From: a phage
NCBI GenBank assembly: GCA_020241125.1
Contig: GCA_020241125.1_4708.1
Strand: one strand, 5' to 3'
DNA: 64,000 nucleotides
The translations under genes were made by a program, and so were the position numbers. Below are positions 1,927 to 57,266 of this stretch, piece by piece. Position 1 is the first letter of the stretch. Every line of letters starts with the position of its first letter. The notes under the pieces are model-generated. The model ran no database searches. It saw only the letters and a program-made list of their open reading frames with translations, and was not told where the DNA came from.

Positions 1927-4836
1927 ATGAACGATATAAATAAAGGGCGCGTCGCCCTCGAACGTCAAATGAGCAATAATGACGTTGCGAAGGCACTCAT
2001 GAACAAATTTGTCGCTCCTGCTCCGCAGTCACGTCTTTATAATACACGTGATGCGGAAGGAGCGAACGGTCGTTTCGGGTTAGTTGTTCCCGACCAAATG
2101 ACGATGAACACGGTTACGCGTGCGACCGCGACAAACATCGAGGATAATAAAAACATCCTCGAGCTGTTCCCTGAACTTAAACGCGTGATGCAGATCTATG
2201 TTGCCGCGTTGACGAACCCTAACGATCTTAAGACGGTCGAGATGTTTATCGACAGCGAAGATTTCCCCGGCAGAGTCGCAGAAATCGTTCAGCCGATGAT
2301 CGATACCATCGACACGCATTTTAAGAATATCTATAAAATAAAGACGCTTATCCCTCGTATCATCGAAGACGTCTTCTTTATCAAGGGCAGTTATAACTTC
2401 GTTGTTCTGCCGGAAAGCACGCTCGACCGCGCCATTAATGGTAACGGTCAACTGAAACTTGAAGAATACGGATTTAAAGACAACCATTTTGCAAGTTGGG
2501 GGCTTCTAGGTAACGACAGTCGCAAACGCCACGAAAATCAATTACCTGCGACGGTTTCGATGGAAGATTATTTCTCGGGTGTTAATGAAACCATACCGTA
2601 CGATCCTGTTGTTCGCATAGACAGCATCAAGTTTACCAATACCCTGCTTCGCGATAAGGACGGTAAATTCATTGAAGCGAAGATCGATATTCCGGATATG
2701 GTTACGGTTGTCGATAACCCAGACATCCTCCGCATGCCTATTCTGCATCAACGTCGAGCAGCGACAGCAGTGCAGCGTGCGTTACGCGCAAACACGTTAG
2801 GAGGTAGTGGTTTGGTAACGCTGTCAGGCGATCCGACCCTAACCGCTAACCGACGTGAGCTGTCGCAAGAACAGGTTAACGAGATCTGGAATAAGCTCAA
2901 CATCCAGCGCCACACCAAGGTATCGCCCGTTTACGCGCTGGCAACCCCAGATACGCTTGATCGTCAAAGCGTTGGCCATCCTGGCGTGATGCATGTACCA
3001 CCTGAGGCATTAGAACCCGTACATGCGCCCGGTGATCCTGAGAACCATATCGGGTATTTGGTTCAGTTGGATGAGTTTGGTTATCCAGTACGTTTGGTTG
3101 AAGATGCGGCGTATTACAAGCAGTTGGAAGGTCGGTTGTCGAAGATCACCGCAGATATCGCAGGTACGTCAAGCAACGGCATGGCGAGCGAGATGATTGG
3201 TGCAGCCAAGAACATGATCCAAGGTACGTCATGTAATCAGGTAGACATGTCGGCCTTCGTATCATCGTACGAATCGCTGATGCAACGTTACATTGTCGAA
3301 CGTATCGTTAACGGTTATCTTGGCAGTGCGGTGGAGATCGGTGCGACATCATCGTTTTATCTGTCGATGCTTGCTCGTAGCCTCGCTCACAAGCAGACCC
3401 GTGTTTTGTTTATTCCTCGAGAGATGGTGACTTACATCGCCTATGAATACAACAAATACGGTATCGGTCGTTCGCTGCTTGAAAGTACGAAGATGATCTC
3501 ATCGCAACGAGCCATGCTCATGGTTCAAGAACTGATGGCGAAAATCAAAAGTTCGTTGAACTATACGACGCTAAGCGTAATGCTTGAAGACACCGACAGA
3601 AACCCGGTCGATACCGTCGAACAAGCACTGCATAGTTTCGCTCGTGTCTACCAGTCTGGTTTCCCGTTGGGTGAAACTAACCCGATGGATATCATCAACG
3701 CGTACGAACGAAGCTCGATTCGATTGAAGGTTGAGGGGAATAACCCACGCTTCCCGAAATTGAATACAGACGTCAGTGTTGAGCAGCGTAACTATCAGTC
3801 TCCTGATAATGAGCTGATGGATCGTTACCGTCGTGACCATTTCATGGGCTTGGGTGTGTCTCCGGAGATTATCGATACTTCCTACCAATCTGAATTCGCA
3901 GCTTCTGTGATTACAGCTAACGCGATGCAAGAGAAACAGTTCACGGTTTGTCGTGAGGTGATCACGAATGGGTTATCGGACCACATCAAGAAATATACGG
4001 CATACAGTCCCGTGTTGTTGACGTCGTTACGAAACACGGTTCGTGCGAACATGTCTAAGCTTTCCCAGGCACAATTGAAGCAGCTTTTTGGTAGCGATTT
4101 CGAAAACGGTGTTATCCGTAACGTTAACGCCTATCAGGAGATTGACGACCAATCAGCAACAATGGATCTGGATTACACTAAACCAGAAGTCCAGGAAGTT
4201 ATTGCCGATGCTTATGTGTCCATGTTCTTAAACAGCCTGCGTGTGCGTTTACCGGATAGCAATGCCCGTCGCCTTGAAGATCAGGTACGTGAATATAATC
4301 AGTACAAGGAAGCGATTACTGCGCAACTTGATGATTATTTAACGCCTGATTACGTCATGGGTCTGGGTGGGGTTGATGAAACAACGCTGCAGATGATCCG
4401 CGCATGCATTATTGGTACCGCGATGCGTACGTGGGCAAAAGAGAACAACTTCAATCAGGAGCTGGCTGATCTCTTCAGTCTTGACGATAAGAAGAATGCC
4501 GTGCAAGATTGGAAACGTATGTCCATGGAACATATTGAAGTCATGGGTAAATGCATGGGTGATTTTGCATTGTATATTCAGAATCTGACGAAGAAGATTG
4601 AAGAGAAGATGGGAGCTCAAGCACAGGACGGTAGCGTTTCATCTGATGGTTCGTGGTCATCCGATTCAAGTAGCGATACCGGTTCTTCTGATGACTTCGG
4701 TGGCGGTGACGATTTCGGAGATACCGATTTCGATACCGAAACGATGGAGGAAACCTCAACAGAAGAAACAACCACATCTGAGGAAACGACTACCGACACA
4801 ACGTCAGAAGACGATACTTCAGGTGACATTGTCTAA
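1927..4836 (+). CDS. large hypothetical virion-type protein (969 aa) with acidic Ser/Thr/Asp/Glu-rich C-terminal tail
   Basis: Long ORF; AAGGAG 9 nt upstream of ATG; C-terminal ~70 aa low-complexity (SSDSSSDTGSSDDFGGGDDFGDTDFDTETMEE...); portal-like size but no motif recognised. Confidence 0.8.
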   Translation: MNDINKGRVALERQMSNNDVAKALMNKFVAPAPQSRLYNTRDAEGANGRFGLVVPDQMTMNTVTRATATNIEDNKNILELFPELKRVMQIYVAALTNPNDLKTVEMFIDSEDFPGRVAEIVQPMIDTIDTHFKNIYKIKTLIPRIIEDVFFIKGSYNFVVLPESTLDRAINGNGQLKLEEYGFKDNHFASWGLLGNDSRKRHENQLPATVSMEDYFSGVNETIPYDPVVRIDSIKFTNTLLRDKDGKFIEAKIDIPDMVTVVDNPDILRMPILHQRRAATAVQRALRANTLGGSGLVTLSGDPTLTANRRELSQEQVNEIWNKLNIQRHTKVSPVYALATPDTLDRQSVGHPGVMHVPPEALEPVHAPGDPENHIGYLVQLDEFGYPVRLVEDAAYYKQLEGRLSKITADIAGTSSNGMASEMIGAAKNMIQGTSCNQVDMSAFVSSYESLMQRYIVERIVNGYLGSAVEIGATSSFYLSMLARSLAHKQTRVLFIPREMVTYIAYEYNKYGIGRSLLESTKMISSQRAMLMVQELMAKIKSSLNYTTLSVMLEDTDRNPVDTVEQALHSFARVYQSGFPLGETNPMDIINAYERSSIRLKVEGNNPRFPKLNTDVSVEQRNYQSPDNELMDRYRRDHFMGLGVSPEIIDTSYQSEFAASVITANAMQEKQFTVCREVITNGLSDHIKKYTAYSPVLLTSLRNTVRANMSKLSQAQLKQLFGSDFENGVIRNVNAYQEIDDQSATMDLDYTKPEVQEVIADAYVSMFLNSLRVRLPDSNARRLEDQVREYNQYKEAITAQLDDYLTPDYVMGLGGVDETTLQMIRACIIGTAMRTWAKENNFNQELADLFSLDDKKNAVQDWKRMSMEHIEVMGKCMGDFALYIQNLTKKIEEKMGAQAQDGSVSSDGSWSSDSSSDTGSSDDFGGGDDFGDTDFDTETMEETSTEETTTSEETTTDTTSEDDTSGDIV

Positions 4837-11122: not shown

Positions 11123-11272
11123 CGTCAACCTCCATCAGATTGAAAACTATCACGCATAATACATTTCCCTTTTCTTGTTCTTATCGAGCCGACAGCCGAC
11201 GGTTTCAGCATCGTTCCTAGCGCGAGAACGACCTTACGTGTTGTCTATGCCTTATTCATCGCAGGCGTCTGT

Positions 11273-11296
11273 CACCTAGGTAATGTAAGCGTCAAA
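11273..11296 (-). promoter_or_regulatory. conserved ~31-bp motif, copy 1 (candidate phage promoter)
   Basis: CACCTAGGTAATGTAAGCGTCAAA on plus; lies between hairpin 11322..11370 and start of 9686..11122. Confidence 0.4.
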
Positions 11297-11321
11297 TTTT
11301 TTCTATTCGCAACAATAAACG

Positions 11322-11370
11322 GCATAGAAACCTCCCCCAACCCTTGCGGGCTGAGGGAGGCTGACTTATG
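11322..11370. terminator. GC-rich palindromic hairpin family member downstream of putative MCP gene
   Basis: GGCATAGAAA-CCTCCCCCAACCCTTGCGGGCTGAGGGAGG-CTGACTTATG. Confidence 0.5.
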
Positions 11371-19391: not shown

Positions 19392-19447
19392 GTTTGTATC
19401 CTCGGCTATTAAGAGAAATTTACAGTGATAACAGTAACCGTTGTTAT

Positions 19448-19478
19448 CACCTAGGTAATGTAGTCGCGAAATAAACTG
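19448..19478 (-). promoter_or_regulatory. conserved ~31-bp motif, copy 2 (candidate phage promoter)
   Basis: CACCTAGGTAATGTAGTCGCGAAATAAACTG; between hairpin 19490..19531 and ATG 19391. Confidence 0.45.
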
Positions 19479-33410: not shown

Positions 33411-33426
33411 AAGATAAACCTGAGCG

Positions 33427-33472
33427 GCATAGAACCCTCTCCCAACCCGTAAGGGAAGGGAGAGGGGATATG
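33427..33472. terminator. GC-rich palindromic hairpin family member
   Basis: CCCTCTCCCAACCCGTAAGGGAAGGGAGAGGG (core identical to copy at 19496) after stop of codon-optimised 33489..34811. Confidence 0.5.
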
Positions 33473-44602: not shown

Positions 44603-47398
44603 TTAAGCTAATTTACCGAAACCGGCTTTCTGCAGTTTCTCGTTGATGATTTTCGCTTCAGCGAAGACGTAATCGCGGTAGGCGGTCACTAACGCATCCA
44701 CACGTGAACGCAAGGCTTCTTCGAAGCTATACCACGCTGCGATTTCACGAATCTGTGCGTTGATATAATCAACGGTTGAGCGAAGCTCGGTTGCGTTTTC
44801 TTGCGGAACGGCTTTCACCTGGCGAGCAACGTCATTTAAACGGCGGAACTGTGTTTCGATTTCTTTAAACTTACTGTCGGCAAGTTTGCTGAATTCGTCA
44901 CCAGAACGGGTAAATAACAGATAGCTGTTGCCGTCAAGTGCGGTCGCTAACTGCTGAAGTACGTTGGTGTCCGGATACACAGGAGTACCGCTTTGCAGTA
45001 CTTTCTCACCGAATTCCGCGAAGTCCTTCGGTGGTAAGTGTGCAGACGTTGTCAATTCGTTGAAACGGAAAGTCAGCGAATTATCATACAGCATCCGGTA
45101 CGCTTCCATACCCTGTTTCATGGTACCGGCCAGGTTAGCCAGACGCGGAGCAATCTCGCCTTCTTTAGCGCGTTTCTGGTCTTCTAACGCCCCTTCGAGT
45201 TCTTTACACTGGTCGTTCAGATACACGATACGATCAGGACGTAGACGACGCATCTCACGAAGAATAGTATCCAGCTTACCTTCCTGGAAATAACCCAACG
45301 TTAAAGACGTACACGCTTGCTGAAGACGATCGAACACCGGTAAGGTTACCATCTCCTTACGGATACCATCAACAATCGCAGAAACAGCCGAAAGTTTCTG
45401 TTCTGTAGTCAATGGAACATCAGAGGCCGACTTGCTGGGTGCACCAACAACGTTACGCATTGCGTCGGTATCCTCGGTTTTATCAACCTCTTTACGAACA
45501 TGCTCATCAGGAACATAAACGTTCGCGTTACGTTTCGCCTGCTTGATGGCGTCGTTGGCCGCTTTTTCGGTGGCCGCTACGCTATCGGCACGTTTCTTCA
45601 AGAGTTCAATAATCCAGAGCAACAGACGACGAATCGCAGTGTAGGCTGTCGTGATGATGACACCGATAACAGCCATCTTCATGATACCGAACGATTCCAT
45701 GGTCGGCTCTAACGCTTGGTCTGGCATATACCGTTCACGCAGCTCCAGATAGATCTGCTCATCTGGTTTGCTGACCTCACCACGATGCGAAGTCCGATAA
45801 ATGGCTTCGTCAATCTCAACAAGATCTTTGCGTGCCTGACGGTCAGATTCTGTTAGGTAAGCACAACCGGATACGTCGTCTTCGAAGCTTAAGAATTTGA
45901 AAAAGTCACTGACGTCGATCTTGATCTTCTTCGCTTCATTATCGACATCGATAACATCTTTTTTCTGTGCCTGATATTCCGCTTTGATGTCGTTCACCGG
46001 CTTCAACGCACGTTCTTTTAATACCTGCACGATCTGTTTCCAGTCGGCGTCACGCTCAAGAACAAGGAAGTAATTCTTGAGTTCAAAAGCACGGTAACGC
46101 GCAACGAGTTGTTCTACCTGAATATGAGCGAGTTGCACATCCATCAGCCAACGCGACATTGCTGAGATCAAACGGCTATAAGCAAGCAATGTCTGATATG
46201 TTAGCTTCATGTGCTTTTCGTACAGCTCAATATCGCCGTCTTGAATATCAGCCGTTGGGTTCATTTCCTTCGTTGCTTTGAAGATCTGTTCGGCCTCATT
46301 TAACGTTTGTTCGAATTTGACTTCATTAAACGTGTCAAACGGTTCAGCCAACTCCATCATTCGATCGTGAAGCTCACGAACCCAGGCTTCCTTATTGTTG
46401 CGAATAGCTGCGTCATCGTGAAGTTCAGTTTGATGTTTCTGTACCCATTCTTCGACGATATCAGCGGCGGCAACAATTCCTGTACCATCGGAAACTAACG
46501 GAACAACTCCAGCAAGTACGCCTACACACGCCGGGGTTTTCCAATAATCGTTCAAAGCGTTTCTGAATTCAACGATGGATTGTACGTTTGGTACCGTATC
46601 CAAAAACGTACTGCCGTTACGGCTCATTGTCGTTACGATATCAGCGAATTCCTTCTGCTTAGCGGTAACAAAAGGAACCAGGACCATAAGCCATTCAGCA
46701 ACCGACTTCGCTTTCTCTTTCAGATTTTTGTCAGCGATTTCCTTAAGGTTTATCGCACCACCGTAACCTGCAAGCTCTTTATATACGTCGCTAAGGGTCA
46801 TCTGTTTATCCAACATTTCTTTGAAACGTGGGTAATCAGCACCTAACGCATCGACAATATCGTTGATTACGTCATCAGTTGTTGCGATAAACTTCTTCGT
46901 ATCAACGTTTGAATATTTCCAGACGTATCGTACTGCTTTCTTGATTCCTGCAAAGATAAACGCCCAGATACGCTTGATGAGTTCCCAGACTTTCTTCGCG
47001 CCATCGACAAACAGTTTAGAGACCTTGGCAACGAATCCTTCCTGCACCAATTCAACGCCGTTACGTGATGGGATTTCCGTGAAGAAAGCATCCGGCAGTT
47101 GTTTCGGGAATGCGTCACCAAGACGCATACGCAGTTCCGGTACATCAGCACGAGAAATACCGCGTGTTACTAATTGTTCGTGAAGACGAACGTTTTCTTC
47201 ACCAGAGGTCACGAATTCGTCAACATCGAAGGAGACCATTGTTTCCTGATCTTCGGTGGTAACGACGCTTGAACCATCACTGGTTTGGATGTCTTCGTCA
47301 GGGAATGCCATGAGCATACCGTGACGCATTTCAACCACCCCGTAATCGGTTGCTAAACCGAATTCGTTGTGGTCTGGGGTAATAACTGGGATACTCAT
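44603..47398 (-). CDS. large hypothetical protein with internal hydrophobic helix (931 aa)
   Basis: Long ORF; hydrophobic segment MKMAVIGVIITTAYTAIRRLLLWIIELL. Confidence 0.85.
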   Translation of the reverse strand: MSIPVITPDHNEFGLATDYGVVEMRHGMLMAFPDEDIQTSDGSSVVTTEDQETMVSFDVDEFVTSGEENVRLHEQLVTRGISRADVPELRMRLGDAFPKQLPDAFFTEIPSRNGVELVQEGFVAKVSKLFVDGAKKVWELIKRIWAFIFAGIKKAVRYVWKYSNVDTKKFIATTDDVINDIVDALGADYPRFKEMLDKQMTLSDVYKELAGYGGAINLKEIADKNLKEKAKSVAEWLMVLVPFVTAKQKEFADIVTTMSRNGSTFLDTVPNVQSIVEFRNALNDYWKTPACVGVLAGVVPLVSDGTGIVAAADIVEEWVQKHQTELHDDAAIRNNKEAWVRELHDRMMELAEPFDTFNEVKFEQTLNEAEQIFKATKEMNPTADIQDGDIELYEKHMKLTYQTLLAYSRLISAMSRWLMDVQLAHIQVEQLVARYRAFELKNYFLVLERDADWKQIVQVLKERALKPVNDIKAEYQAQKKDVIDVDNEAKKIKIDVSDFFKFLSFEDDVSGCAYLTESDRQARKDLVEIDEAIYRTSHRGEVSKPDEQIYLELRERYMPDQALEPTMESFGIMKMAVIGVIITTAYTAIRRLLLWIIELLKKRADSVAATEKAANDAIKQAKRNANVYVPDEHVRKEVDKTEDTDAMRNVVGAPSKSASDVPLTTEQKLSAVSAIVDGIRKEMVTLPVFDRLQQACTSLTLGYFQEGKLDTILREMRRLRPDRIVYLNDQCKELEGALEDQKRAKEGEIAPRLANLAGTMKQGMEAYRMLYDNSLTFRFNELTTSAHLPPKDFAEFGEKVLQSGTPVYPDTNVLQQLATALDGNSYLLFTRSGDEFSKLADSKFKEIETQFRRLNDVARQVKAVPQENATELRSTVDYINAQIREIAAWYSFEEALRSRVDALVTAYRDYVFAEAKIINEKLQKAGFGKLA

Positions 47399-47835
47399 GC
47401 ATTCTCTCCTTGCAGTGCGTTAGCGAAAGCCGTTGCGAGTTGCGCAACCAGCTTAGGATCAACACCTTCGATAACGTCGGGCAGCCCTGCGGTTTCTTGG
47501 TCACGAACGGCGGAGGCTAATAACAGCATGGTTTCAGGTGCGGTCGGCTCATGCACCATGCGGTAACGCAGGCACCAGAAGTAGCGGGCAACGTCTAACG
47601 CATCGGCCAGCCCAATAACCAGTACCTTGTTCAGCTTATCCAGCCCTTCACGGATTTTAGGGAGATGTTCGCGAACGAAAATGCTATCTGCGGTCAGATC
47701 TTCTTTTTCAGCGAATACGGGCATGCTGTAACCAGCGATATAACCTGCGGCAATACTTAGCGCACGGGTCTGTTGTTCGGCTGGGAAATCACGTACCAGG
47801 TCTTTCAGCTGAACGGCGAAATCAGAAATATTCAT
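47395..47835 (-). CDS. hypothetical protein (146 aa)
   Basis: ORF; 4-nt overlap with upstream gene. Confidence 0.65.
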   Translation of the reverse strand: MNISDFAVQLKDLVRDFPAEQQTRALSIAAGYIAGYSMPVFAEKEDLTADSIFVREHLPKIREGLDKLNKVLVIGLADALDVARYFWCLRYRMVHEPTAPETMLLLASAVRDQETAGLPDVIEGVDPKLVAQLATAFANALQGENA

Positions 47836-49399: not shown

Positions 49400-51151
49400 A
49401 TGAGCGAACAAGAACGAAAACCTAAGAAGAAACTGCTCGGTATTCAATGTCGACACATCAGCTATAACGAAGCGAACGATGGCAGCAAGAACGACCTCAT
49501 GATCGCAAAAGAGATCATGTTCTTCGATGATAATACGCAAGCGACGAACCTTCGCTTCTTCGAGAATTACAAACGTCCGTTTTGGGTGACGGTAGAGAGT
49601 AAACGTAAGAACAAATATAAAAAGGAAAGCGAGAAGCTCTCGCATGTGCGTCGCTACGATGTCCGCCAAAGCGAACTGGTTGAAAAGATCAGCTCGGTAC
49701 TTTATAAAAGACGTGCTGACGATAACACCCGTTTACAGCAGCTTGCACGGAGTCCATACCTCTATGGAACGGACGTTAGCGCCAGCTGTTATTTAAAAAC
49801 CCAGTACAACACAAAATGGCCGGAATACGTCGATAAATTACCCGCTTCCATTGCCTGTTTCGATATCGAAACCGACGTTGTCCACGGACACGGTAAGATC
49901 GTTTGTATGTCTATTACAATGGGATACAATGCGATACTTTGCTATACCAAGGACTTCGTTGGTCATATTCCGAATGCCATTGAGAAAACCCATGAGAAGA
50001 TTCGATATTACCTGGCCGAACGTCTGAATACCAAAGAAGATCCCCACGCATTCGAAAAATATCAGTACGATGTTCGAATCGTAGAAAGCCCGGCACAAGC
50101 GGTCATCCAATGCATGCAGAAGGTTCACGAATGGCAGCCGGATTATCTCCTTGGCTGGAATATCGCGTTCGATATTCCGCGCATGCTCCAGGCACTGAAC
50201 GAGGAAGGGTATCGTCCCGAGGATGTTTTCTCCGATCCCCGTATACCACCTAAATATCGTATTGCTCGCTGGGTACCACCGAAGACCGACAAGGTATCTG
50301 CTTCAGGTCGTAAAACCAACCTTACCCTTGAGCAAACCTGGCCGATGTTTTATACGATGGCTACGTATCAGGTTATGGATGCGATGTGTGGCTATAAGTT
50401 CGTTCGTTTAGGAAGACCGGATGAAGGACGCTATTCACTCGATGCGGTGTTAGAGCGAAATAAATGCCATACGAAATTAAAAGCTATTCCTGGTACAGAG
50501 GGGTTCACGGAGCTTGCCTGGCACGAAGAGATGCAAACGAACCATCAAATCGACTACGGCGTATATAACCTTTGGGATAACCAGGGTATTGAGGCGTTGG
50601 ACCAGAAAACAAAAGACTATTCGATGACCATCCCTATCCGTTTAGCGGCGTCGGATTTGAAAGATTTCAGTTCTAACCCTAAACGTATCTGCGATAAACT
50701 TTTCTTCGTTTATCTTAACCGTGGGGAAGTCATGGGATGTACCGCTGACGACATGACCCAGGAAGAAGATAAGTGGGTTATCTCACGAGCTGGACATATC
50801 GTCACATTACCATGCGATCTCATGGCTGACAACGGCATTCATCTCTTCTGGGATATGCCGAACCTGAGAAGTTATATCCGTCTATTCGTTGCAGACCTTG
50901 ACATTAGCAGTTCATACCCGAATGGGCAGATCCTGTTGAATCTATCCAGAGCGTGTGTTTTTCGCGAGCTCTCACGCATTGAGGGCGTCTCTGACTATCA
51001 ATTCAGGAAGTTAGGTATCAACTTTATTACCGGAGGTAAAACGAACGCTGTAGACTTCTGTAGAATCGTTTATAAAGCACCATCGATGTTTGAACTTTTA
51101 GAACATTTCGATGCAACGCGTCCAAAAGAGGAAGCGCGGACCATCGAATGA
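49400..51151 (+). CDS. family-B DNA polymerase N-terminal fragment: 3'-5' exonuclease domain plus polymerase motif A (583 aa)
   Basis: Exo I ACFDIETD, Exo II YLLGWNIAFDIPRML, Exo III YSLDAVLER, motif A DISSSYPN, degenerate motif B-like KLGINFITGG; ORF ends before any motif C (YGDTDS). Confidence 0.75.
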   Translation: MSEQERKPKKKLLGIQCRHISYNEANDGSKNDLMIAKEIMFFDDNTQATNLRFFENYKRPFWVTVESKRKNKYKKESEKLSHVRRYDVRQSELVEKISSVLYKRRADDNTRLQQLARSPYLYGTDVSASCYLKTQYNTKWPEYVDKLPASIACFDIETDVVHGHGKIVCMSITMGYNAILCYTKDFVGHIPNAIEKTHEKIRYYLAERLNTKEDPHAFEKYQYDVRIVESPAQAVIQCMQKVHEWQPDYLLGWNIAFDIPRMLQALNEEGYRPEDVFSDPRIPPKYRIARWVPPKTDKVSASGRKTNLTLEQTWPMFYTMATYQVMDAMCGYKFVRLGRPDEGRYSLDAVLERNKCHTKLKAIPGTEGFTELAWHEEMQTNHQIDYGVYNLWDNQGIEALDQKTKDYSMTIPIRLAASDLKDFSSNPKRICDKLFFVYLNRGEVMGCTADDMTQEEDKWVISRAGHIVTLPCDLMADNGIHLFWDMPNLRSYIRLFVADLDISSSYPNGQILLNLSRACVFRELSRIEGVSDYQFRKLGINFITGGKTNAVDFCRIVYKAPSMFELLEHFDATRPKEEARTIE

Positions 51152-51190: not shown

Positions 51191-51245
51191 CATGCGAAGC
51201 CCCTCCCCCTGGCGGAAGCCGGAGGGAGGGGTGAGGTTTATGCGC
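51191..51245. terminator. GC-rich palindromic hairpin family member between convergent genes
   Basis: CCCCTCCCCCTGGCGGAAGCCGGAGGGAGGGG with GGAA loop. Confidence 0.5.
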
Positions 51246-51723
51246 GTTCGTTACCAACCGTTACTTTGTAGTCAGCGTCGGTTAAGAAAATAGACAGGAA
51301 TCCATGTTCTTTGCAAATCTTACTAAGGATGTCAGCAATGATTTCGTTGATCATCGGCTTGTTTGCAAGGGCATAGATGTACCCGGGTGTAAAAGAAAGT
51401 GCGTGATTGATCATAGGCTCATGAGAAGCCAAGATAAGGATCACATGATGCTTCCCATCGTCGGTAACGACCGCTTGCGTAGACACGAAGAAATCAGTGA
51501 AGCAGCAGCGATCACAGGCTTTAGGTATATACAAGTCACCCAGAGCTTCGTCACGTGCTTTTACGTGTGTTTCAGGGGTGATGCTGCTAAGTTGATCTTC
51601 AGCGAGATCCAAGACATCCTCAATCGTTTTAAGAATAGCGTTGCGGAAATCCTCACGGTAGAATGGGATGATATCACGATCGTTCATGTAATCGCCGGAT
51701 TCGATAGTAAAGTTGATGTTCAT
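51238..51723 (-). CDS. hypothetical small protein (161 aa), first gene of small-protein array
   Basis: ORF. Confidence 0.65.
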   Translation of the reverse strand: MNINFTIESGDYMNDRDIIPFYREDFRNAILKTIEDVLDLAEDQLSSITPETHVKARDEALGDLYIPKACDRCCFTDFFVSTQAVVTDDGKHHVILILASHEPMINHALSFTPGYIYALANKPMINEIIADILSKICKEHGFLSIFLTDADYKVTVGNERA

Positions 51724-51793
51724 TGAATGCTCCTAGTGGTTATGTCGATTGATCGATGTATTGATTTATGTTTGAAGGTGTTGTTCACCTTCG

Positions 51794-52258
51794 TTAGATA
51801 TCGTCATCCGTGGTGCCGTAGGACATATGCTGAATTAATTTTCTCGGCTCGATGAAAATACGACATGTGATAAACACATCGGGATCGTATTGCTCCACGC
51901 AACGTCCGAAGGTTTGTTTTGCGGCTTGGCGCATCGATGTTATTTCCTGATCGTTCATCGCATTATCGAATTCGATGTTGATCGCGATTTTATCGGGAAA
52001 TAAATAGATAAAGTAATCGCCGCTGATACCACCATCATCAAAGTGACGTTCATTGTAGCACTGGACGAGCTTACCTTCACGTTCTTTCTGATACCACCCA
52101 AGGATACTATTAAGACCTCTGTCCACGCATTCGAATGCTTGAGTAATAACATCCTCAACGACGGATGCAGGCGTGGGACCATTGAATAGACGATCTAAGC
52201 GCTTTTTCATCGATTTGGTTTTCTCGTTCATGATTTCTTTTCCTGTTATAATCGGCAT
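51794..52258 (-). CDS. hypothetical small protein (154 aa; alternative start ATG 52231)
   Basis: First ATG lies inside the palindromic flank of hairpin 52255..52300; internal ATG 52231 has AGGAA SD. Confidence 0.65.
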   Translation of the reverse strand: MPIITGKEIMNEKTKSMKKRLDRLFNGPTPASVVEDVITQAFECVDRGLNSILGWYQKEREGKLVQCYNERHFDDGGISGDYFIYLFPDKIAINIEFDNAMNDQEITSMRQAAKQTFGRCVEQYDPDVFITCRIFIEPRKLIQHMSYGTTDDDI

Positions 52259-52300
52259 ACAACCCTTCCCCGGCCTGATGGCTAGGGAAGGGGCTATGCT
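52255..52300. terminator. GC-rich palindromic hairpin family member, intercistronic
   Basis: GCATACAA-CCCTTCCCCGGCCTGATGGCTAGGGAAGGGG-CTATGC; overlaps first ATG of 51794..52258. Confidence 0.45.
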
Positions 52301-52306
52301 ACGTTG

Positions 52307-52705
52307 TTATGCTTCGCAATCAGCTGAAGGCGTCGCGCCTTTCTTACCAGCGATACGCCAAATCCGACACGCTGGGTAATGGTTAACCTCTAGAGAGCAA
52401 GGAATGTTATATTTCTCTTCCAGCGCATAAAGACATTTCGTTAGCTGCTCCAGCGCGTTCTCGTCGTGTCGTAACGCGTGGTGGCCTAATCGATGTTGGT
52501 CGTTCTTTATATACGCCTCGAAGAGAACATGTTGGCGATGTACGCTGACGTTTACAGCCTCGAGTATAGCTTGGTCGAGCATACGACTAAAGCACATCAA
52601 CGAGTCAGATACGTTTTCTCGCTTAACCAGATCGATCATGGCGGGAATATACGAATGGTCGATGTTATCGATGACCGCTTTAGCGACGGAATCAGCAACG
52701 TTCAT
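52307..52705 (-). CDS. hypothetical small protein (132 aa), tandem paralog of 52743..53138
   Basis: Shares VKAVxDNIDH and EEKYNIPxSLEVN blocks with the next gene. Confidence 0.7.
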   Translation of the reverse strand: MNVADSVAKAVIDNIDHSYIPAMIDLVKRENVSDSLMCFSRMLDQAILEAVNVSVHRQHVLFEAYIKNDQHRLGHHALRHDENALEQLTKCLYALEEKYNIPCSLEVNHYPACRIWRIAGKKGATPSADCEA

Positions 52706-52742
52706 CTTTTTTAATCCCTAGTTTGTTATTGATCACGTATAT

Positions 52743-53138
52743 TTACTCTTTGACGTCAGTTGTCGTTTCGACATGCTTCTCACTACTGACGTACCAGAGC
52801 AGGTACGCTGGGAAAAGATTGACCTCTAAGCTAAATGGGATATTGTATTTCTCTTCCATTTTACAGAGATGTTCTTTAAGTAAATTTCTCGCGTCTCTGT
52901 CACCACGAACAGAGTGCCAGTCTAGTTCTTTGTTCTCCTTTACCAGGACCTCTACGATGATACGTTGCTCGTGAACCTCGGTTTTCACAGTGAAAAGTAA
53001 ATCGCTGCTATCCAAACGGGTAAAACGAATGTATGAACCAGGTGTTTTTTCTTGTTTAATAATATCGATCATGGTAGAAATGCGCGGATGATCGATGTTG
53101 TCGTTAACAGCTTTAACGATGGATTCTACAATGCTCAT
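52743..53138 (-). CDS. hypothetical small protein (131 aa), tandem paralog of 52307..52705
   Basis: Shares conserved blocks with previous gene. Confidence 0.7.
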   Translation of the reverse strand: MSIVESIVKAVNDNIDHPRISTMIDIIKQEKTPGSYIRFTRLDSSDLLFTVKTEVHEQRIIVEVLVKENKELDWHSVRGDRDARNLLKEHLCKMEEKYNIPFSLEVNLFPAYLLWYVSSEKHVETTTDVKE

Positions 53139-53170
53139 TTTTTATCCTTAATGTTATCGATTTGGAAATA

Positions 53171-53938
53171 TTACTTATTTTTGCTTTCTTTATAGACAGT
53201 TGTTACCCACGATGGGAAAGCCGGATGGAAACAGAGCGTGAACGTAACTGTCGTATCGTATTTAAACGCACAGTTCACTAACCGGGTATCTAACGTTTTC
53301 CTTAATCCGTCATCATCGTTATCGATGATGGTCATATCTCTTAATATCCCAAGCACGTTAACGCCATCGGGTGTCTGGGTTACGACAAGTCGTCGTAATG
53401 GCCCGCATGTATAGTCACGTACAAATCCTTTCTTCGGGTCCGATACCCTGTTTAACGCATCGTGATTTTTGATGAATTCATCGGCGATACAATAGGTTTG
53501 TTCCCTTGCTTTATCGGGATCGTATTCTGCTAATAGTTCCTTCGTGTCGAATGTTATCGCGTTATTAGCATTCGATTCAGAAGGGAAACATAAAACTAAA
53601 CGAACAGGGTATTCATATTGATCTGTTCTCGTTTCGAAAGCATTAGCTAAACACGGCTTGTATGCCTTTGCGTCGACATTGTCCAAACACGGATGCAATA
53701 ATGCGTGAATAACGGCACCATCGTCAGTTAAACCGAATTCCAGAAATTGTGTTTCATCGACATCCGTGACGGTTTTCTGAAGATACGCTTTACCGTTAAC
53801 GATATCGGTATCCCACATATCGTCGTTTAACGATTCTTCAAACTTATCGAATATATGGTTTACGAAATTGATGAGTTCATCAATACGACACTGTTGGTTG
53901 AATTCGATTAATCGTTGAACTTTATCTCTGATAGACAT
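53171..53938 (-). CDS. hypothetical protein (255 aa)
   Basis: ORF. Confidence 0.7.
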   Translation of the reverse strand: MSIRDKVQRLIEFNQQCRIDELINFVNHIFDKFEESLNDDMWDTDIVNGKAYLQKTVTDVDETQFLEFGLTDDGAVIHALLHPCLDNVDAKAYKPCLANAFETRTDQYEYPVRLVLCFPSESNANNAITFDTKELLAEYDPDKAREQTYCIADEFIKNHDALNRVSDPKKGFVRDYTCGPLRRLVVTQTPDGVNVLGILRDMTIIDNDDDGLRKTLDTRLVNCAFKYDTTVTFTLCFHPAFPSWVTTVYKESKNK

Positions 53939-53940
53939 GA

Positions 53941-54405
53941 TTACTCCTTAGTTCCTTCTTCGTTGGACGTATATTCCACATAGTGGAATTCACGGCCGTC
54001 GATAAACTTGAGTGCTACTGTAATAGGGAAATCACACGGCATAGCGGATTTCGTAAATGCGTTATCAGCAACATCAGATAACCGACGTATGGTATTCTCC
54101 CCTTTTGCTATGAATGGGAATTTAATGTTAATAAGGATACGGTGTTTGTAAATAGTAAAGACGACAGTGCTGTCGAAATGTACCCCAGTTAAAGTCATTG
54201 TTGGGATACGTTTTACAACGGAGAAATGTGTCCCGTCAATATCGCTACTTCCCACTGACCATTCATCGGAATTGCGTAGACTTTTCTTGAGGATATCAAC
54301 GCTTTGCGTGACCACCTCAGCAACTTGTACGACGTACGTGTCTTTATGCATGTCGAAAAGTTCGTTGACGTTAGATTTGAATGAATAAACCGTTGCCATT
54401 ATCAT
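53941..54405 (-). CDS. hypothetical small protein (154 aa)
   Basis: ORF; C-terminal HYVEYTSNEEG resembles neighbours. Confidence 0.65.
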   Translation of the reverse strand: MIMATVYSFKSNVNELFDMHKDTYVVQVAEVVTQSVDILKKSLRNSDEWSVGSSDIDGTHFSVVKRIPTMTLTGVHFDSTVVFTIYKHRILINIKFPFIAKGENTIRRLSDVADNAFTKSAMPCDFPITVALKFIDGREFHYVEYTSNEEGTKE

Positions 54406-54860
54406 ACCTCTTTTTTCATCTTCATCGGAACAGCGAGTGCAGCACTCGCTGTTCCATTATCCGGCTCATATTCCAATGTAACGAGATTGCAGCCGTCCGA
54501 TAATTCATAATCGATCGCTAGGGGGAACGAGATACCGTGCGACTTTATGCATTTACCAAATGTCTCGTTGGCTGTATACATTAGAAGTTGCTTTGCGGCA
54601 AGCCCGTTTACGCTGAAAGGTAATTGTGCTGTCGCAGCGATACGATTATTGTAAACTCTGATATCGGTGATATCTACAATCGTAGCATTGCCGTGTTGTG
54701 TTGATGGAACGGATAGGTTGTAGAAGTAAGGTTCGGAGTCGGAATCGGGCTCGTTAAATAATTCCCAGCACCCGTCCTCCTGCAATCTTACTTCGAGTAT
54801 TTCAAAGCTTTTAATTATCGATTCTACCAGCTGCTCACCGTAAGAATCCCATGTCGTCAT
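54402..54860 (-). CDS. hypothetical small protein (152 aa)
   Basis: ORF; C-terminal LEYEPDNG motif. Confidence 0.65.
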   Translation of the reverse strand: MTTWDSYGEQLVESIIKSFEILEVRLQEDGCWELFNEPDSDSEPYFYNLSVPSTQHGNATIVDITDIRVYNNRIAATAQLPFSVNGLAAKQLLMYTANETFGKCIKSHGISFPLAIDYELSDGCNLVTLEYEPDNGTASAALAVPMKMKKEV

Positions 54861-54931
54861 TTTTTAACACCTTCGACACCTTTTAACCGATACGTGTCCC
54901 ATCTAACAAGGGACACGATATCGTTGATTAA

Positions 54932-55432
54932 TTACTCTTCTGTGTTTTCATTGTCAGGATCGTAGTGGAATTCGAACAGCCCTGAACCGTCGTGTCCGTT
55001 GATTGTTAGTATAACGGGCATATCGAATCCTCGGACACGCGAATGAAAACATTGTGCTAATTTTAGTTTGGCGTATGCCGCTACTTCATTGACAGCAATA
55101 CACGATTCACCTGTTATACTCAGTATAACGTCGATACTAACAATGTTGTCGTGCAACGCAAAACGCCAGCGATCGATACGATTATTATCTTTATCGGTTG
55201 TCTCGTTTACGAGATAGACTTTATCGTCAACCGACAAAGCGGGACTCCAGCAACGATCGTTTATTAAATTCGCCTGGAGTTTTAGTATCGTCTGATCGAT
55301 AATATCCCAACACGTAACCAGCGTGGTGTCAGGCACTGAGTAGAGAAGGGCGTGCACTTTATCCTTTATTTTAAGTGCTTCCGCAGGACGTCCGCAAATA
55401 CCATGCATTTCGACTTTCTTATTCATATTCAC
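54932..55432 (-). CDS. hypothetical small protein (166 aa)
   Basis: ORF; C-terminal FEFHYDPDNEN motif. Confidence 0.65.
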   Translation of the reverse strand: MNMNKKVEMHGICGRPAEALKIKDKVHALLYSVPDTTLVTCWDIIDQTILKLQANLINDRCWSPALSVDDKVYLVNETTDKDNNRIDRWRFALHDNIVSIDVILSITGESCIAVNEVAAYAKLKLAQCFHSRVRGFDMPVILTINGHDGSGLFEFHYDPDNENTEE

Positions 55433-55470: not shown

Positions 55471-56103
55471 TTACATGCTTTCTAGCATATTGACGATCAT
55501 GGAACCCATACCGAAACTCGGTCTCTCACCGATATACTCAGCAAGCTGGCGATGGACGTCTTTTGGATTTCCTTCTTCACCGTCAGCATCGATGTAGACT
55601 GAAAAAGAAACCGAATCGGAATCCACGCTGATAACCAGACGACGTTCATTGCGTTCCTTGAGCGTGTCGACGATAGATGCTTTCAGTACCGGGATCGCAT
55701 TCATCGCGTGCAAGATATCTCCATCGGGTTTCGGCAGATCGATCTTTTCTTTCAGGTCGATATTGATGTTGGTTACAATTGGGTTGAGGTCGACCTTGAC
55801 GTAATCGTTAGGGTACATGCGAATAATCGCACGATCGATATCTGAACCGTAAAAGTCAACACGTGGCTTTAACACTTCTTTGTTTGGATCCATGTTTTCA
55901 TCCATACCCGCCTGCAAGAAACGTTCTACGTTATCCAGTTCACGATAAACTAACGCTTCGATTTCTTTCAGATAGTTGGCTGCGGTTTCATGTTCTTTAC
56001 GCAGCTCGTCTTTAAGGAGCTGTACGGTGGTTTCACTGGAACGAATGCTGTTCGCGAATTGGGTAATTGACATATCGAATTCCTTAAATTCTCTTGAGTT
56101 CAA
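55471..56103 (-). CDS. hypothetical protein (210 aa)
   Basis: ORF. Confidence 0.7.
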   Translation of the reverse strand: MNSREFKEFDMSITQFANSIRSSETTVQLLKDELRKEHETAANYLKEIEALVYRELDNVERFLQAGMDENMDPNKEVLKPRVDFYGSDIDRAIIRMYPNDYVKVDLNPIVTNINIDLKEKIDLPKPDGDILHAMNAIPVLKASIVDTLKERNERRLVISVDSDSVSFSVYIDADGEEGNPKDVHRQLAEYIGERPSFGMGSMIVNMLESM

Positions 56104-56171
56104 TTAATGATGAAAAGCTGTAAAAAAAGGTGGGGCGAACCCCACCAAAACGTCAGACACACGCGGGAAAA

Positions 56172-56597
56172 TTAATTCAGTGATGCATATAAGGCATAAC
56201 GACTGTAGATCTCAACCGCCGGTCCGTTATGCGTTAACAGACCGTCTCGGCTGTAATACTGGAAAAATGAATAACGTTTGTCGAAGTGATAAACAAAAGC
56301 AATGTCTTTGCCGTCAAAACCTGTGATGCGTGGTCTGTTTTTATCTAGCAATGCTTTGACTTTTAACAGTGTTGCCGCACGTGCTTTAACGTTAGGGATC
56401 AAGCCATCACAATCGATATAAACAGTGTAACCTGTTTCAGATGTTGCGACGGTCGTATTGCGATTGACGCGGAAGATTTTTGTTTCGTATGTACTATCTT
56501 CAAGAATTGGGTTTTGTTTTTCGTATTTTCGTTTACGCAGAAATTCTACAACGGTGATATAGTTAGCGGTAATATGCCCGGTTATAGCTTGTAACAT
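56172..56597 (-). CDS. hypothetical protein (141 aa), preceded by conserved 31-bp motif
   Basis: ORF with AAGGA SD 8 nt upstream. Confidence 0.7.
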   Translation of the reverse strand: MLQAITGHITANYITVVEFLRKRKYEKQNPILEDSTYETKIFRVNRNTTVATSETGYTVYIDCDGLIPNVKARAATLLKVKALLDKNRPRITGFDGKDIAFVYHFDKRYSFFQYYSRDGLLTHNGPAVEIYSRYALYASLN

Positions 56598-56665
56598 CTT
56601 GACATCCTTTTATATTGGATTGGTTGCAATTGTCTTAAATAGATGATAAGATATTTTGCTCTTAT

Positions 56666-56696
56666 CACTAAGGTAATGTAGTCGCGAAATAAACTG
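56666..56696 (-). promoter_or_regulatory. conserved ~31-bp motif, copy 3 (candidate phage promoter)
   Basis: CACTAAGGTAATGTAGTCGCGAAATAAACTG; between hairpin 56719..56770 and ATG 56597. Confidence 0.45.
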
Positions 56697-56718
56697 CGTT
56701 AACACGAAATAAAAAACA

Positions 56719-56770
56719 GCATAGAACCCTCCTCCCACATCCTTCAAGAGGACGGTGGGAAGAGGGAGAG
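56719..56770. terminator. GC-rich palindromic hairpin family member
   Basis: CAGCATAGAA-CCCTCCTCCCACATCCTTCAAGAGGACGGTGGGAAGAGGGAG. Confidence 0.45.
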
Positions 56771-56771
56771 A

Positions 56772-57173
56772 TTAAATGTCGTGGACGGCAATGCCGTTTA
56801 ACCAGCAATACAGCTTAACGCGACAGGAATACCGCTTCGTTGCGGCAACCATTTCATCGCGTAAACGCTGGTATATTTCATCCTGGTGTTCACGATCAAT
56901 GGGGTAATCAGCCCAACATTCGATCATGACGTCACCATTCGTCAGAATCGTCGTACGCATCCTGTCCTGGATACGGCGGTCTTTCCCGGCATTAGGGAAA
57001 TACATTCCTTCAGTACGAATAAGGTCGCCGCAAGGCATGACTAACCATTCGTTCGTTTTGCCGGTATTCTTATAATCCATTACAGCTTGCATTGCGGTGT
57101 CAACGCTAAAAGAAACATAATTCCAAACGGATGTCCAACGATAGATTGCGGGTTGTTCGAGTGTTTCGTTCAT
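56772..57173 (-). CDS. hypothetical protein (133 aa)
   Basis: ORF. Confidence 0.65.
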   Translation of the reverse strand: MNETLEQPAIYRWTSVWNYVSFSVDTAMQAVMDYKNTGKTNEWLVMPCGDLIRTEGMYFPNAGKDRRIQDRMRTTILTNGDVMIECWADYPIDREHQDEIYQRLRDEMVAATKRYSCRVKLYCWLNGIAVHDI

Positions 57174-57219
57174 GGAGTGCTTTTCCTATTTTTATTTTCT
57201 GCACAGGATAAATTCAACG

Positions 57220-57266
57220 GCATAAAGCCCTTCCCTGCCCTTATATGGGGCGGGAAGAGTTTATGA
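57220..57266. terminator. GC-rich palindromic hairpin family member in 214-bp noncoding gap
   Basis: GCATAAA-GCCCTTCCCTGCCCTTATATGGGGCGGGAAGAG-TTTATG. Confidence 0.4.

Follow-up and report, generated by a model that had tools for sequence, protein, structure and literature searches.

A family of early alpha/beta paralogues in a variable gene island of Goslarvirus jumbo phages, with a possible role directed at host components

In a 64,000-nucleotide stretch of phage DNA (contig GCA_020241125.1_4708.1 of GenBank assembly GCA_020241125.1; hereafter the window), eight consecutive minus-strand open reading frames (ORFs) at positions 51238-55432 had been described in a first-pass annotation as a tandem array of small, fast-diverging paralogues, possibly a host-takeover or anti-defence island. 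All eight ORFs were present at these coordinates. They were labelled A (51238-51723) to H (54932-55432), and the genes located upstream of them in the direction of transcription were labelled I, J and K. It was found that B, E, F, G and H, and probably C and D, belong to a single family of early alpha/beta paralogues of Goslarvirus that has not been previously described. The family has grown by tandem duplication, as in C and D, and by domain fusion, as in E. With regard to function, there is about an even chance that the paralogues are cytoplasmic binding proteins aimed at variable components of the host, serving either anti-defence or takeover.

The source phage is, as judged by its sequence, a Goslarvirus, that is, a nucleus-forming jumbo phage of enterobacteria (Goslar itself is assigned to Chimalliviridae). 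The region 51.0-56.7 kb had a sole match in the phage collection, Escherichia phage vB_EcoM_Goslar, with 90.7% identity over 60% of the query, and the flanks matched Goslar with 91-94% nucleotide identity. Copies identical to protein A were found on contigs of ~238-243 kb, both in metagenomes and in assemblies of E. coli and Salmonella, and one 238-kb contig (GCA_020395325.1, locus L007) was the same as the window at every gene compared across the locus. This occurrence of relatives in bacterial assemblies is in line with the recent growth of Goslarvirus from 1 to 237 genomes, which were recovered from such assemblies (PMC12768965). For the population comparison, 15 related loci were compared gene by gene; Goslar is L012 in this set.

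The family was established from B (51794-52258, minus strand; 154 residues, more likely 145 with the ATG at 52231 as the start), F (53941-54405, minus; 154 or 152 residues), G (54402-54860, minus; 152 residues), H (54932-55432, minus; 166 residues, or 164 from the ATG at 55426) and E (53171-53938, minus; 255 residues). B, F and H are orthologues of Goslar gp71, gp72 and gp73 (73%, 67% and 79% identity, respectively), and E is absent from Goslar. The related C-terminal motif that had been noted in several of the proteins was borne out, since its tyrosine was near-invariant in an alignment of 46 family sequences; the distant members carry variants of the terminal motif such as FKYTPSN, IEYNPGDN, FEYIPD and IEYTPE. 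The homology extends over the full length of the proteins, beyond the C-terminal tail, because it was seen in pairwise BLASTP comparisons (E values of 3.6e-7 for F and G, 1.3e-4 for G and H, and 1.5e-5 for residues 1-116 of E and H), in a common succession of helices and strands in the multiple alignment, and in profile matches. The family hidden Markov model (HMM), whose profile comprises the N-terminal helices, the W of helix 2, an I-x-I-x-I strand, the A..F of helix 3, a YD-x-PV strand and the terminal Y-x-P, recognised one domain each in B, F, G and H and two in E, with scores from 2e-19 to 1e-60. The two domains of E, at residues ~1-134 and ~129-238, were matched at 4e-31 and 2e-19; therefore, E is a fusion of two domains. 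In a held-out check, a 169-residue gene of loci L014, L016 and L017 that was outside the training set was matched by the family HMM at 1e-13.

C (52307-52705, minus; 132 residues) and D (52743-53138, minus; 131 residues) had been recognised at the outset as tandem duplicates of each other, and this was confirmed by 39% identity across 129 residues (E value of 6e-31). Their relationship to the rest of the family is more distant. D was the best match of the family HMM outside the training set, at a weak E value of 0.022, and an HMM built from C and D matched the C-terminal domain of E, also weakly, at 0.01. Alignment of the C/D profile with the family profile by hhalign gave a probability of 51% and an E value of 1.5e-4, and it placed YD-x-PV against YNIP-x-SLEV, the register expected by eye. 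Each of these lines of evidence is weak, and they converge; C and D are thus probable distant members of the family. The claim that the whole array consists of paralogues could not be extended to A, which is unrelated. A, I and J gave no match to the family HMM, and their hhalign probabilities were 0.1-2.4%. J had been suspected by eye to be a member owing to its GFD...FQYY segment; neither this nor the membership of I or A was supported by hhalign.

The topology of the family consists of two N-terminal helices, an antiparallel sheet of three or four strands, a long helix, and two last strands ending in Y-x-P, with a tail that is often acidic. AlphaFold2 (AF2) predicted F with a mean predicted local distance difference test score (pLDDT) of 85.5 and a predicted template modelling score (pTM) of 0.77 and C with a pLDDT of 84.1 and a pTM of 0.80. 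The predicted topologies, aa-bbbb-a-bb for F and aa-bbb-a-bb for C (a, helix; b, strand), are alike save for one strand. The near-invariant positions of the family are occupied by K, L, W and Y only, and no polar or catalytic-type residue is invariant. This set of residues suggests that the proteins serve as a scaffold rather than carrying an active site.

When 1.84 billion protein cluster representatives were searched exhaustively with HMMER, only 15 family proteins were found. An indexed search returned 160 matches, and all among the matches listed were orthologues of B, E or H on Goslar-like contigs. All of the family matches that were inspected lay on Goslar-like contigs of ~235-260 kb, and the loci retrieved from them corresponded to the array locus. 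The most remote members (P0129 and P0132-P0134) retain the terminal Y-x-P, and P0132 occupies the array locus of other Goslarviruses. The family therefore appears to be restricted to the Goslar-like genus. Scans of the ten proteins A to J against Pfam, PHROGs and PADLOC gave nothing above noise; the weak library matches to Invasin_D4, an SLFN GTPase-like domain and SIR2 were far under the curated thresholds and were rejected. Sequence searches of the PDB with the family profile, the C/D profile and A also yielded nothing, and the sole real match in a viral structure library was Goslar gp73 itself. The nearest solved folds were the T3S4 substrate-specificity-switch domain of PscP (PDB 5cuk) and PA3611 (PDB 3npd); neither a sequence-profile match nor a convincing structural match to the T3S4 domain (the C-terminal domain of YscP, PscP and FliK) was obtained.

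Expression and virion abundance were assessed from the data published for Goslar, and the figures are those of the Goslar orthologues. In RNA sequencing (RNA-seq) of infections with chimallin knocked down, gp70-gp75 showed log2 fold changes of +1.0 to +1.3 (Armbruster et al., bioRxiv 10.1101/2023.09.20.558163, Sup. Table 2), whereas each gene of gp48-gp69 and gp76-gp93 was down by 3 to 8 log2 units (bioRxiv 10.1101/2023.09.20.558163). According to the authors, chimallin knockdown arrests the infection at the early vesicle (EPI), so that only the first-stage programme of the virion RNA polymerase is expressed (bioRxiv 10.1101/2023.09.20.558163). Considering the rise of gp70-gp75 against the fall of their neighbours, it may be concluded that the genes from J to A form a sharply bounded early-class island amid nucleus-dependent genes. 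J (56172-56597, minus; 141 residues, basic, isoelectric point (pI) of 9.4), the orthologue of gp75 with 99% identity, is the first gene of this early block. It is followed by I (55471-56103, minus), an acidic protein, probably of 200 residues (ATG at 56073), orthologous to gp74. Goslar read density was flat from gp75 through gp70.

A single early-promoter-like element, TACATTACCTTAGTGA (56665..56680, minus), is located ~70-85 nt upstream of J, in the spacer between K and J, and is kept in all related loci. The core TACATTACCT(A/T)(G/A)GTGA has exactly three copies in the window, all on the minus strand (11272-11287, 19447-19462 and 56665-56680), and the conserved element to which the three copies belong is ~40 nt long, with the core TACATTACCTWRGTGA. 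Each copy comes after a CCCTC..GGGAGGG hairpin and before a block that is early-class in Goslar (gp40-37, gp47-44 and gp75-70). The three early-block spacers of the window share a C-rich/G-rich hairpin, followed by TTCTATGCYG and then by the ~40-nt element. No copy of the element was found inside the array. The element at 56665-56680 is thus the putative early promoter of the J to A unit and a candidate promoter of the virion RNA polymerase in Goslarvirus. The transcription unit extends past 55432, taking in I, J and the promoter-like element.

The virion data separated the paralogues from A. The estimated copies per virion were ~3.7 for gp71, ~0.5 for gp72, ~0.4 for gp73, ~8 for gp74 and ~0.5 for gp75 (bioRxiv 10.64898/2026.04.21.720040, Table S4). 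Since gp71-gp73 do not exceed ~4 copies, the paralogues are not virion components. gp70, in turn, was estimated at ~166 copies in the virion preparation, with PhuZ at 171 and chimallin at 126 (bioRxiv 10.64898/2026.04.21.720040, Table S4). Its packaging is uncertain because this abundance resembles that of PhuZ and chimallin, which are non-structural and co-purify. A (161 residues, acidic, minus strand) is 100% identical to gp70, and it was 100% conserved in 10 related loci. The combination of virion abundance with lack of divergence, which would speak against a host-directed island, was therefore found for A and not for gp71-gp73. A is early-class in the RNA-seq data, yet it is among the more abundant unmodelled proteins of purified Goslar virions. 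It is best explained as a protein in its own right, abundant and conserved, which belongs to the transcription unit without belonging to the family. Its distribution, too, is limited to the genus.

The locus is a hotspot at which genes have been gained and lost and alleles replaced. The flanking genes showed 91-100% protein identity across the 15 related loci, and the number of family domains per locus ranged from 3 in Goslar to 8 in L017. G, D, C, E, A, I and J are each present in some loci and absent from others: G is missing in five (Goslar, L003 and L014-L016), D is missing in four (L003, L004, L011 and Goslar), and Goslar is without C, D, E and G. In L011, I and J are deleted and a short fused remnant is left in the spacer between K and H. 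In L014, L016 and L017, the slot of A holds two further family members of 169 and 148 residues instead; in L015, the 148-residue member is present in this slot, and the 169-residue ORF is not intact, being part of a 225-residue ORF. In L003, E is truncated and there is an extra family member.

The alleles of the genes that are retained fall into discrete groups. Alleles of F were either 100% or ~65% identical, which defines two classes ~35% apart (dN of 0.23 and dS of 0.60, the nonsynonymous and synonymous divergence, respectively). Alleles of E were 90-100% or 59-63% identical to the window copy and thus differ by up to 41%. For B, identities were 71, 80, 86 or 95-100%, and for H, they were 78, 84, 88 or 98-100%, with dN/dS of ~0.2-0.3. 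The allele classes differ by dS of 0.3-1.1, well over the value of 0.05-0.2 for the backbone, and dN/dS was 0.2-0.5 for the array alleles versus 0.005-0.1 for the core flanking genes. In wider searches, alleles of A with 78-89% identity and C-type alleles with 56-89% identity were also found. Orthologues vary throughout the fold and modestly more in helices 2 and 3, a difference to which no weight was given. The description of the array as fast-diverging thus had to be amended: the hotspot is real, A, C and D are near-invariant, and the locus is better described in terms of discrete old alleles combined with the presence or absence of cassettes. The pattern is a mosaic one, in which old alleles and cassettes change places under selection that is relaxed yet still purifying, and it is not one of uniform rapid divergence; cassettes or alleles are exchanged whole among co-circulating phages.

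The array therefore comprises small early genes (the early class being that of Goslar) whose content varies between close relatives. Early expression in Goslar, together with differences in gene number and alleles between near-identical phages, fits host-directed accessory proteins, and the reading of the paralogues as cytoplasmic binders of variable host components is given even weight on these grounds. In such a scheme, transcription of the unit by the injected virion RNA polymerase would start at the TACATTACCT-type element that precedes J, before the genome has left the early-infection vesicle, and the mRNAs would be translated in the host cytoplasm ahead of the phage nucleus. The products would act as non-enzymatic binders, each on a different variable host component, which may be a sensor or effector of cytoplasmic defence, or else a takeover target against which the nuclear shell gives no protection. 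As the targets would be distinct, phages would differ in their repertoires. A more specific form of this proposal, offered tentatively and considered possible at best, is that the family supplies the genus with its own combinatorial set of inhibitors acting early in the cytoplasm, in which each paralogue or allele would neutralise a different protein- or RNA-sensing immune system of Enterobacteriaceae that the nucleus cannot exclude.

Of the interpretation as an anti-defence or host-takeover island, the gene-content hotspot, the early class and the scarcity of gp71-gp73 in virions were upheld, and specific signs of such a function were not found. Several observations weigh against it. No known anti-defence gene, marker or regulator was detected in the locus with Pfam, PHROGs, PADLOC and the PDB, a set that included no dedicated anti-defence library, and the same searches revealed no similarity to a known anti-defence, toxin or host-takeover protein. 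The alleles were not partitioned by host genus, since each allele cluster spans Salmonella, E. coli and Shigella assemblies; as the same alleles occur in phages of all three, there is no simple host-genus specificity. dN/dS was below 1 throughout, and nothing pointed directly to positive selection. A, C and D are near-invariant where present (dS of ~0-0.03, with C 99-100% identical). C, D, E and G have no orthologue in Goslar, to which the expression and virion figures belong, the promoter assignment rests on three copies of the element, and the function proposed for the family members is putative throughout.

It is also conceivable, though somewhat unlikely, that the paralogues serve the early programme of the phage itself, as factors of the vesicle, in the hand-over of the genome to the nucleus, in mRNA handling or in chaperoning early proteins. 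They share the early class with chimallin and other set-up genes, they are small, acidic and non-enzymatic-looking, and the indifference of their alleles to host genus would be natural for such a role. However, set-up functions are expected to be conserved across Chimalliviridae, whereas this family is confined to one genus; the number of domains varies from 3 to 8, and whole genes are missing in viable relatives, including Goslar. The persistence of deeply split allele classes in an otherwise near-identical population would suit another proposal, which is regarded as unlikely, namely, that the array mediates competition among Goslarviruses by superinfection exclusion or by interference with co-infecting relatives, with allele diversity reflecting conflict between phages. 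A polymorphic intron/HNH homing site lies ~0.3 kb away in the DNA polymerase gene, and such endonucleases are implicated in the competition of PhiKZ-like phages according to work cited in PMC12676376. Alleles independent of host genus would be expected here too, but the library scans revealed no nuclease, toxin or immunity-like domain, and nucleotide identity showed no marked co-conversion trough around the homing site.

A neutral origin was considered quite improbable. According to this explanation, the genes are dispensable ORFans under relaxed constraint, have no specific targets and turn over at a recombination-tolerant site between essential modules. The lack of homologues beyond the genus and of any recognised domain, the tolerance of gene loss, and a dN/dS above that of the core genes yet never above 1 are all compatible with it. 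Nevertheless, a dN/dS of 0.2-0.5 still denotes purifying selection, and the ORFs of the array are intact in many genomes on hundreds of contigs, the exact sequence of C being present on 341. Moreover, the fold persists at ~20% identity and its AF2 models are confident, transcription of the genes is seen in Goslar, and start-stop overlaps are maintained, consistent with translational coupling. It is highly improbable that the proteins are virion, inner-body or ejected proteins like the PF12699 paralogues of PhiKZ and Goslar, and for B to H this explanation is largely refuted. A tandem paralogue array in a chimallivirus invites the comparison, the acidic C-terminal tails superficially recall protease-processed head proteins, and A is represented by gp70 in purified Goslar virions. 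Against this stand the trace amounts of gp71, gp72 and gp73 reported above, the early rather than late class, the absence of any PF12699 match, the location of the Goslar PF12699 genes (gp53-58) elsewhere in the genome, and the fact that the abundance of gp70 equals that of the co-purifying PhuZ and chimallin.

G, F and E are tightly packed: the stop codon of G overlaps the start codon of F (ATGA), and F and E are separated by a 2-nt spacer. The array proteins are all acidic, with pI of 4.4-6.0. An A6/A5 run at 54405-54425, at the 3' end of G and upstream of F, varies among relatives and moves the stop codon of G; G has 152 or 162 residues, the longer form reading into the start of F, and other 3' variants have 153, 155, 159 and 176 residues.

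The statement that hairpins punctuate the array held on recalculation. Five stem-loops were found in or beside the interval 51238-55432, with energies of -12 to -34 kcal/mol and z-scores of -3.1 to -5.3 relative to shuffles, and they are conserved in relatives. In the whole unit, there are six stem-loops (after A, B, C, H and J and inside the 3' end of G), with z-scores of -2.6 to -5.3, and the D-C, E-D and I-H spacers contain none. The J-I hairpin, GGTGGGG..CCCCACC followed by T7 (56129..56146, minus), resembles a canonical intrinsic terminator and is annotated as a terminator in Goslar; Goslar read density was no lower past it, so that the unit is not obviously ended there. The hairpin after H, CGATATCGTGTCCC...GGGACACGTATCG (54888..54923, minus; -20.8 kcal/mol, z of -3.1), is kept in most related loci with or without G, is weaker in Goslar and is degraded in L011. 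A perfect 14-bp palindrome (54427..54455, minus; z of -5.25) falls within the 3' end of G, preceding the start codon of F by 22-50 nt; its stem variants in relatives include a compensatory change from C-G to A-T. The hairpin after C and upstream of B, CCCCTTCCC..GGGGAAGGG followed by TTGTATGCCG (52259..52297, minus; -23.6 kcal/mol, z of -4.0), sits between gp72 and gp71 in Goslar. The hairpin after B, GAAGGTG..CACCTTC (51774..51792, minus; -12 kcal/mol, z of -3.7), is present in most relatives. The unit ends at a strong GC-rich hairpin (51200..51231, minus) that separates A from the convergent DNA polymerase gene; its spacer has -34.3 kcal/mol and a z-score of -3.1.

Only the J-I hairpin has a U-tract adjoining a GC-rich stem; those after A, B, C and H and inside G are without an adjacent U-tract. 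Because Goslar reads are flat despite the terminator after J, the internal hairpins are more likely to be elements acting at the RNA level than full stops. In the proposed mechanism, these conserved hairpins would separate the cassettes and would probably act on the RNA, in 3'-end stability, processing or attenuation, not as full terminators. A scan of 50.5-58 kb against Rfam gave no family, and sites resembling sigma-70 promoter or terminator consensus sequences were not enriched over shuffles.

A further recurrent element, in which the G-rich 3' arm of a hairpin is followed by TT(C/G)TATGC(C/T)G, had 14 matches in the window against 6.3 expected, and 14 was reached in 0 of 100 shuffles. Examples on the minus strand are at 3998-4011, 11320-11333, 33425-33438, 52253-52266 (between C and B), 56717-56730 and 57218-57231. 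This element could be a terminator flank or a TATG-type promoter. ATCRATAAC was rejected as a promoter motif: it is enriched, at 10 matches for an expected 1.6, but coding sequence accounts for half of the local copies, including the IDN codons of C. Four copies lie in 52664-53326, two of them in the D-C and E-D spacers, 20-25 nt upstream of start codons, and two in coding sequence.

Some features of the surroundings were recorded as well. K (56772-57173, minus) is the gene upstream of J; in L003, K is only 81-84% identical, and an extra 151-residue ORF lies between K and J. The family B DNA polymerase gene (49400-51151, plus), which is convergent with A, is uninterrupted in the window and encodes 583 residues. 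Goslar and about half of the relatives carry an extra ~1.8 kb that splits this gene and codes for a NUMOD1/HNH homing endonuclease; the insertion site is at ~50895-50915, ~0.3 kb from A. Co-conversion by this endonuclease was considered as a cause of the invariance of A and was not retained, as there was no distinct identity trough near ~50.9 kb; it remains speculation. Farther away, at ~45801-47000, inside the ORF 44606-47419, which is orthologous to gp65, the window has only 69-79% identity to all 14 other loci, with 94-98% in the surroundings. This is a second hypervariable patch, unrelated to the array and without a Pfam match; Goslar gp65 has been assigned to the capsid vertex-binding complex (bioRxiv 10.64898/2026.04.21.720040).

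Nucleus-forming phages evade DNA-targeting immunity by means of their shell, and they are exposed at the pre-nuclear vesicle stage and to protein- or RNA-sensing defences; very few counter-defence genes are known in them. The locus offers a compact candidate set of about ten genes and one early promoter-like element, and it includes a hitherto undescribed protein family whose structure models are confident. Naturally occurring knock-outs and exchanged alleles are found among the Goslarvirus genomes that were sampled, and the genus now counts 237 genomes. The hypothesis is directly testable, since Goslar is a tractable model for which CRISPRi-ART knockdown, RNA-seq and virion proteomics are available. 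Should host-directed binding be confirmed, the residues governing specificity could be mapped with the aid of the natural variation; should it not, there is still the record of a sharply bounded early island and of a motif that is a candidate early promoter of the genus. The concept itself is unsurprising, and the value of the locus lies in a candidate set that is clean, well delimited and experimentally tractable in a model phage.

Among known systems, the closest in kind are the non-essential accessory clusters of PhiKZ-like phages, which have been proposed as anti-defence loci, and the anti-defence islands of smaller phages (PMC12676376). Like the PhiKZ-type clusters, the array is dispensable in some relatives, is variable in content and has an expression compatible with early interaction with the host; its dispensability is deduced from natural variants rather than from mutagenesis. 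Unlike them, it contains no known anti-defence gene, such as Tad1, or regulator, and it consists mostly of one paralogous family, not of unrelated genes. The PF12699 family of inner-body or injected proteins (gp92-97, 153, 162 and 163 of PhiKZ and gp53-58 of Goslar) similarly comprises chimallivirus paralogues that are mostly clustered and partly dispensable. However, PF12699 proteins are larger, possess a Pfam domain, are expressed late and are packaged in tens to thousands of copies, whereas the array family has no Pfam match at E values up to 1, is early-class and, for the Goslar orthologues, is present at no more than ~4 copies per virion.

A broader parallel is provided by the genomic accordions of poxviruses and African swine fever virus, in which copy-number variation, duplication and divergence of small non-enzymatic proteins take place at a variable locus in a conserved core, as in the array. 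This is an analogy only, with no homology and no sign here of rapid copy-number amplification under selection. If the tentative proposal of a combinatorial repertoire of early inhibitors is true, duplication, fusion and cassette exchange in this locus would amount to a phage version of the arms races that large eukaryotic DNA viruses wage through multigene families.

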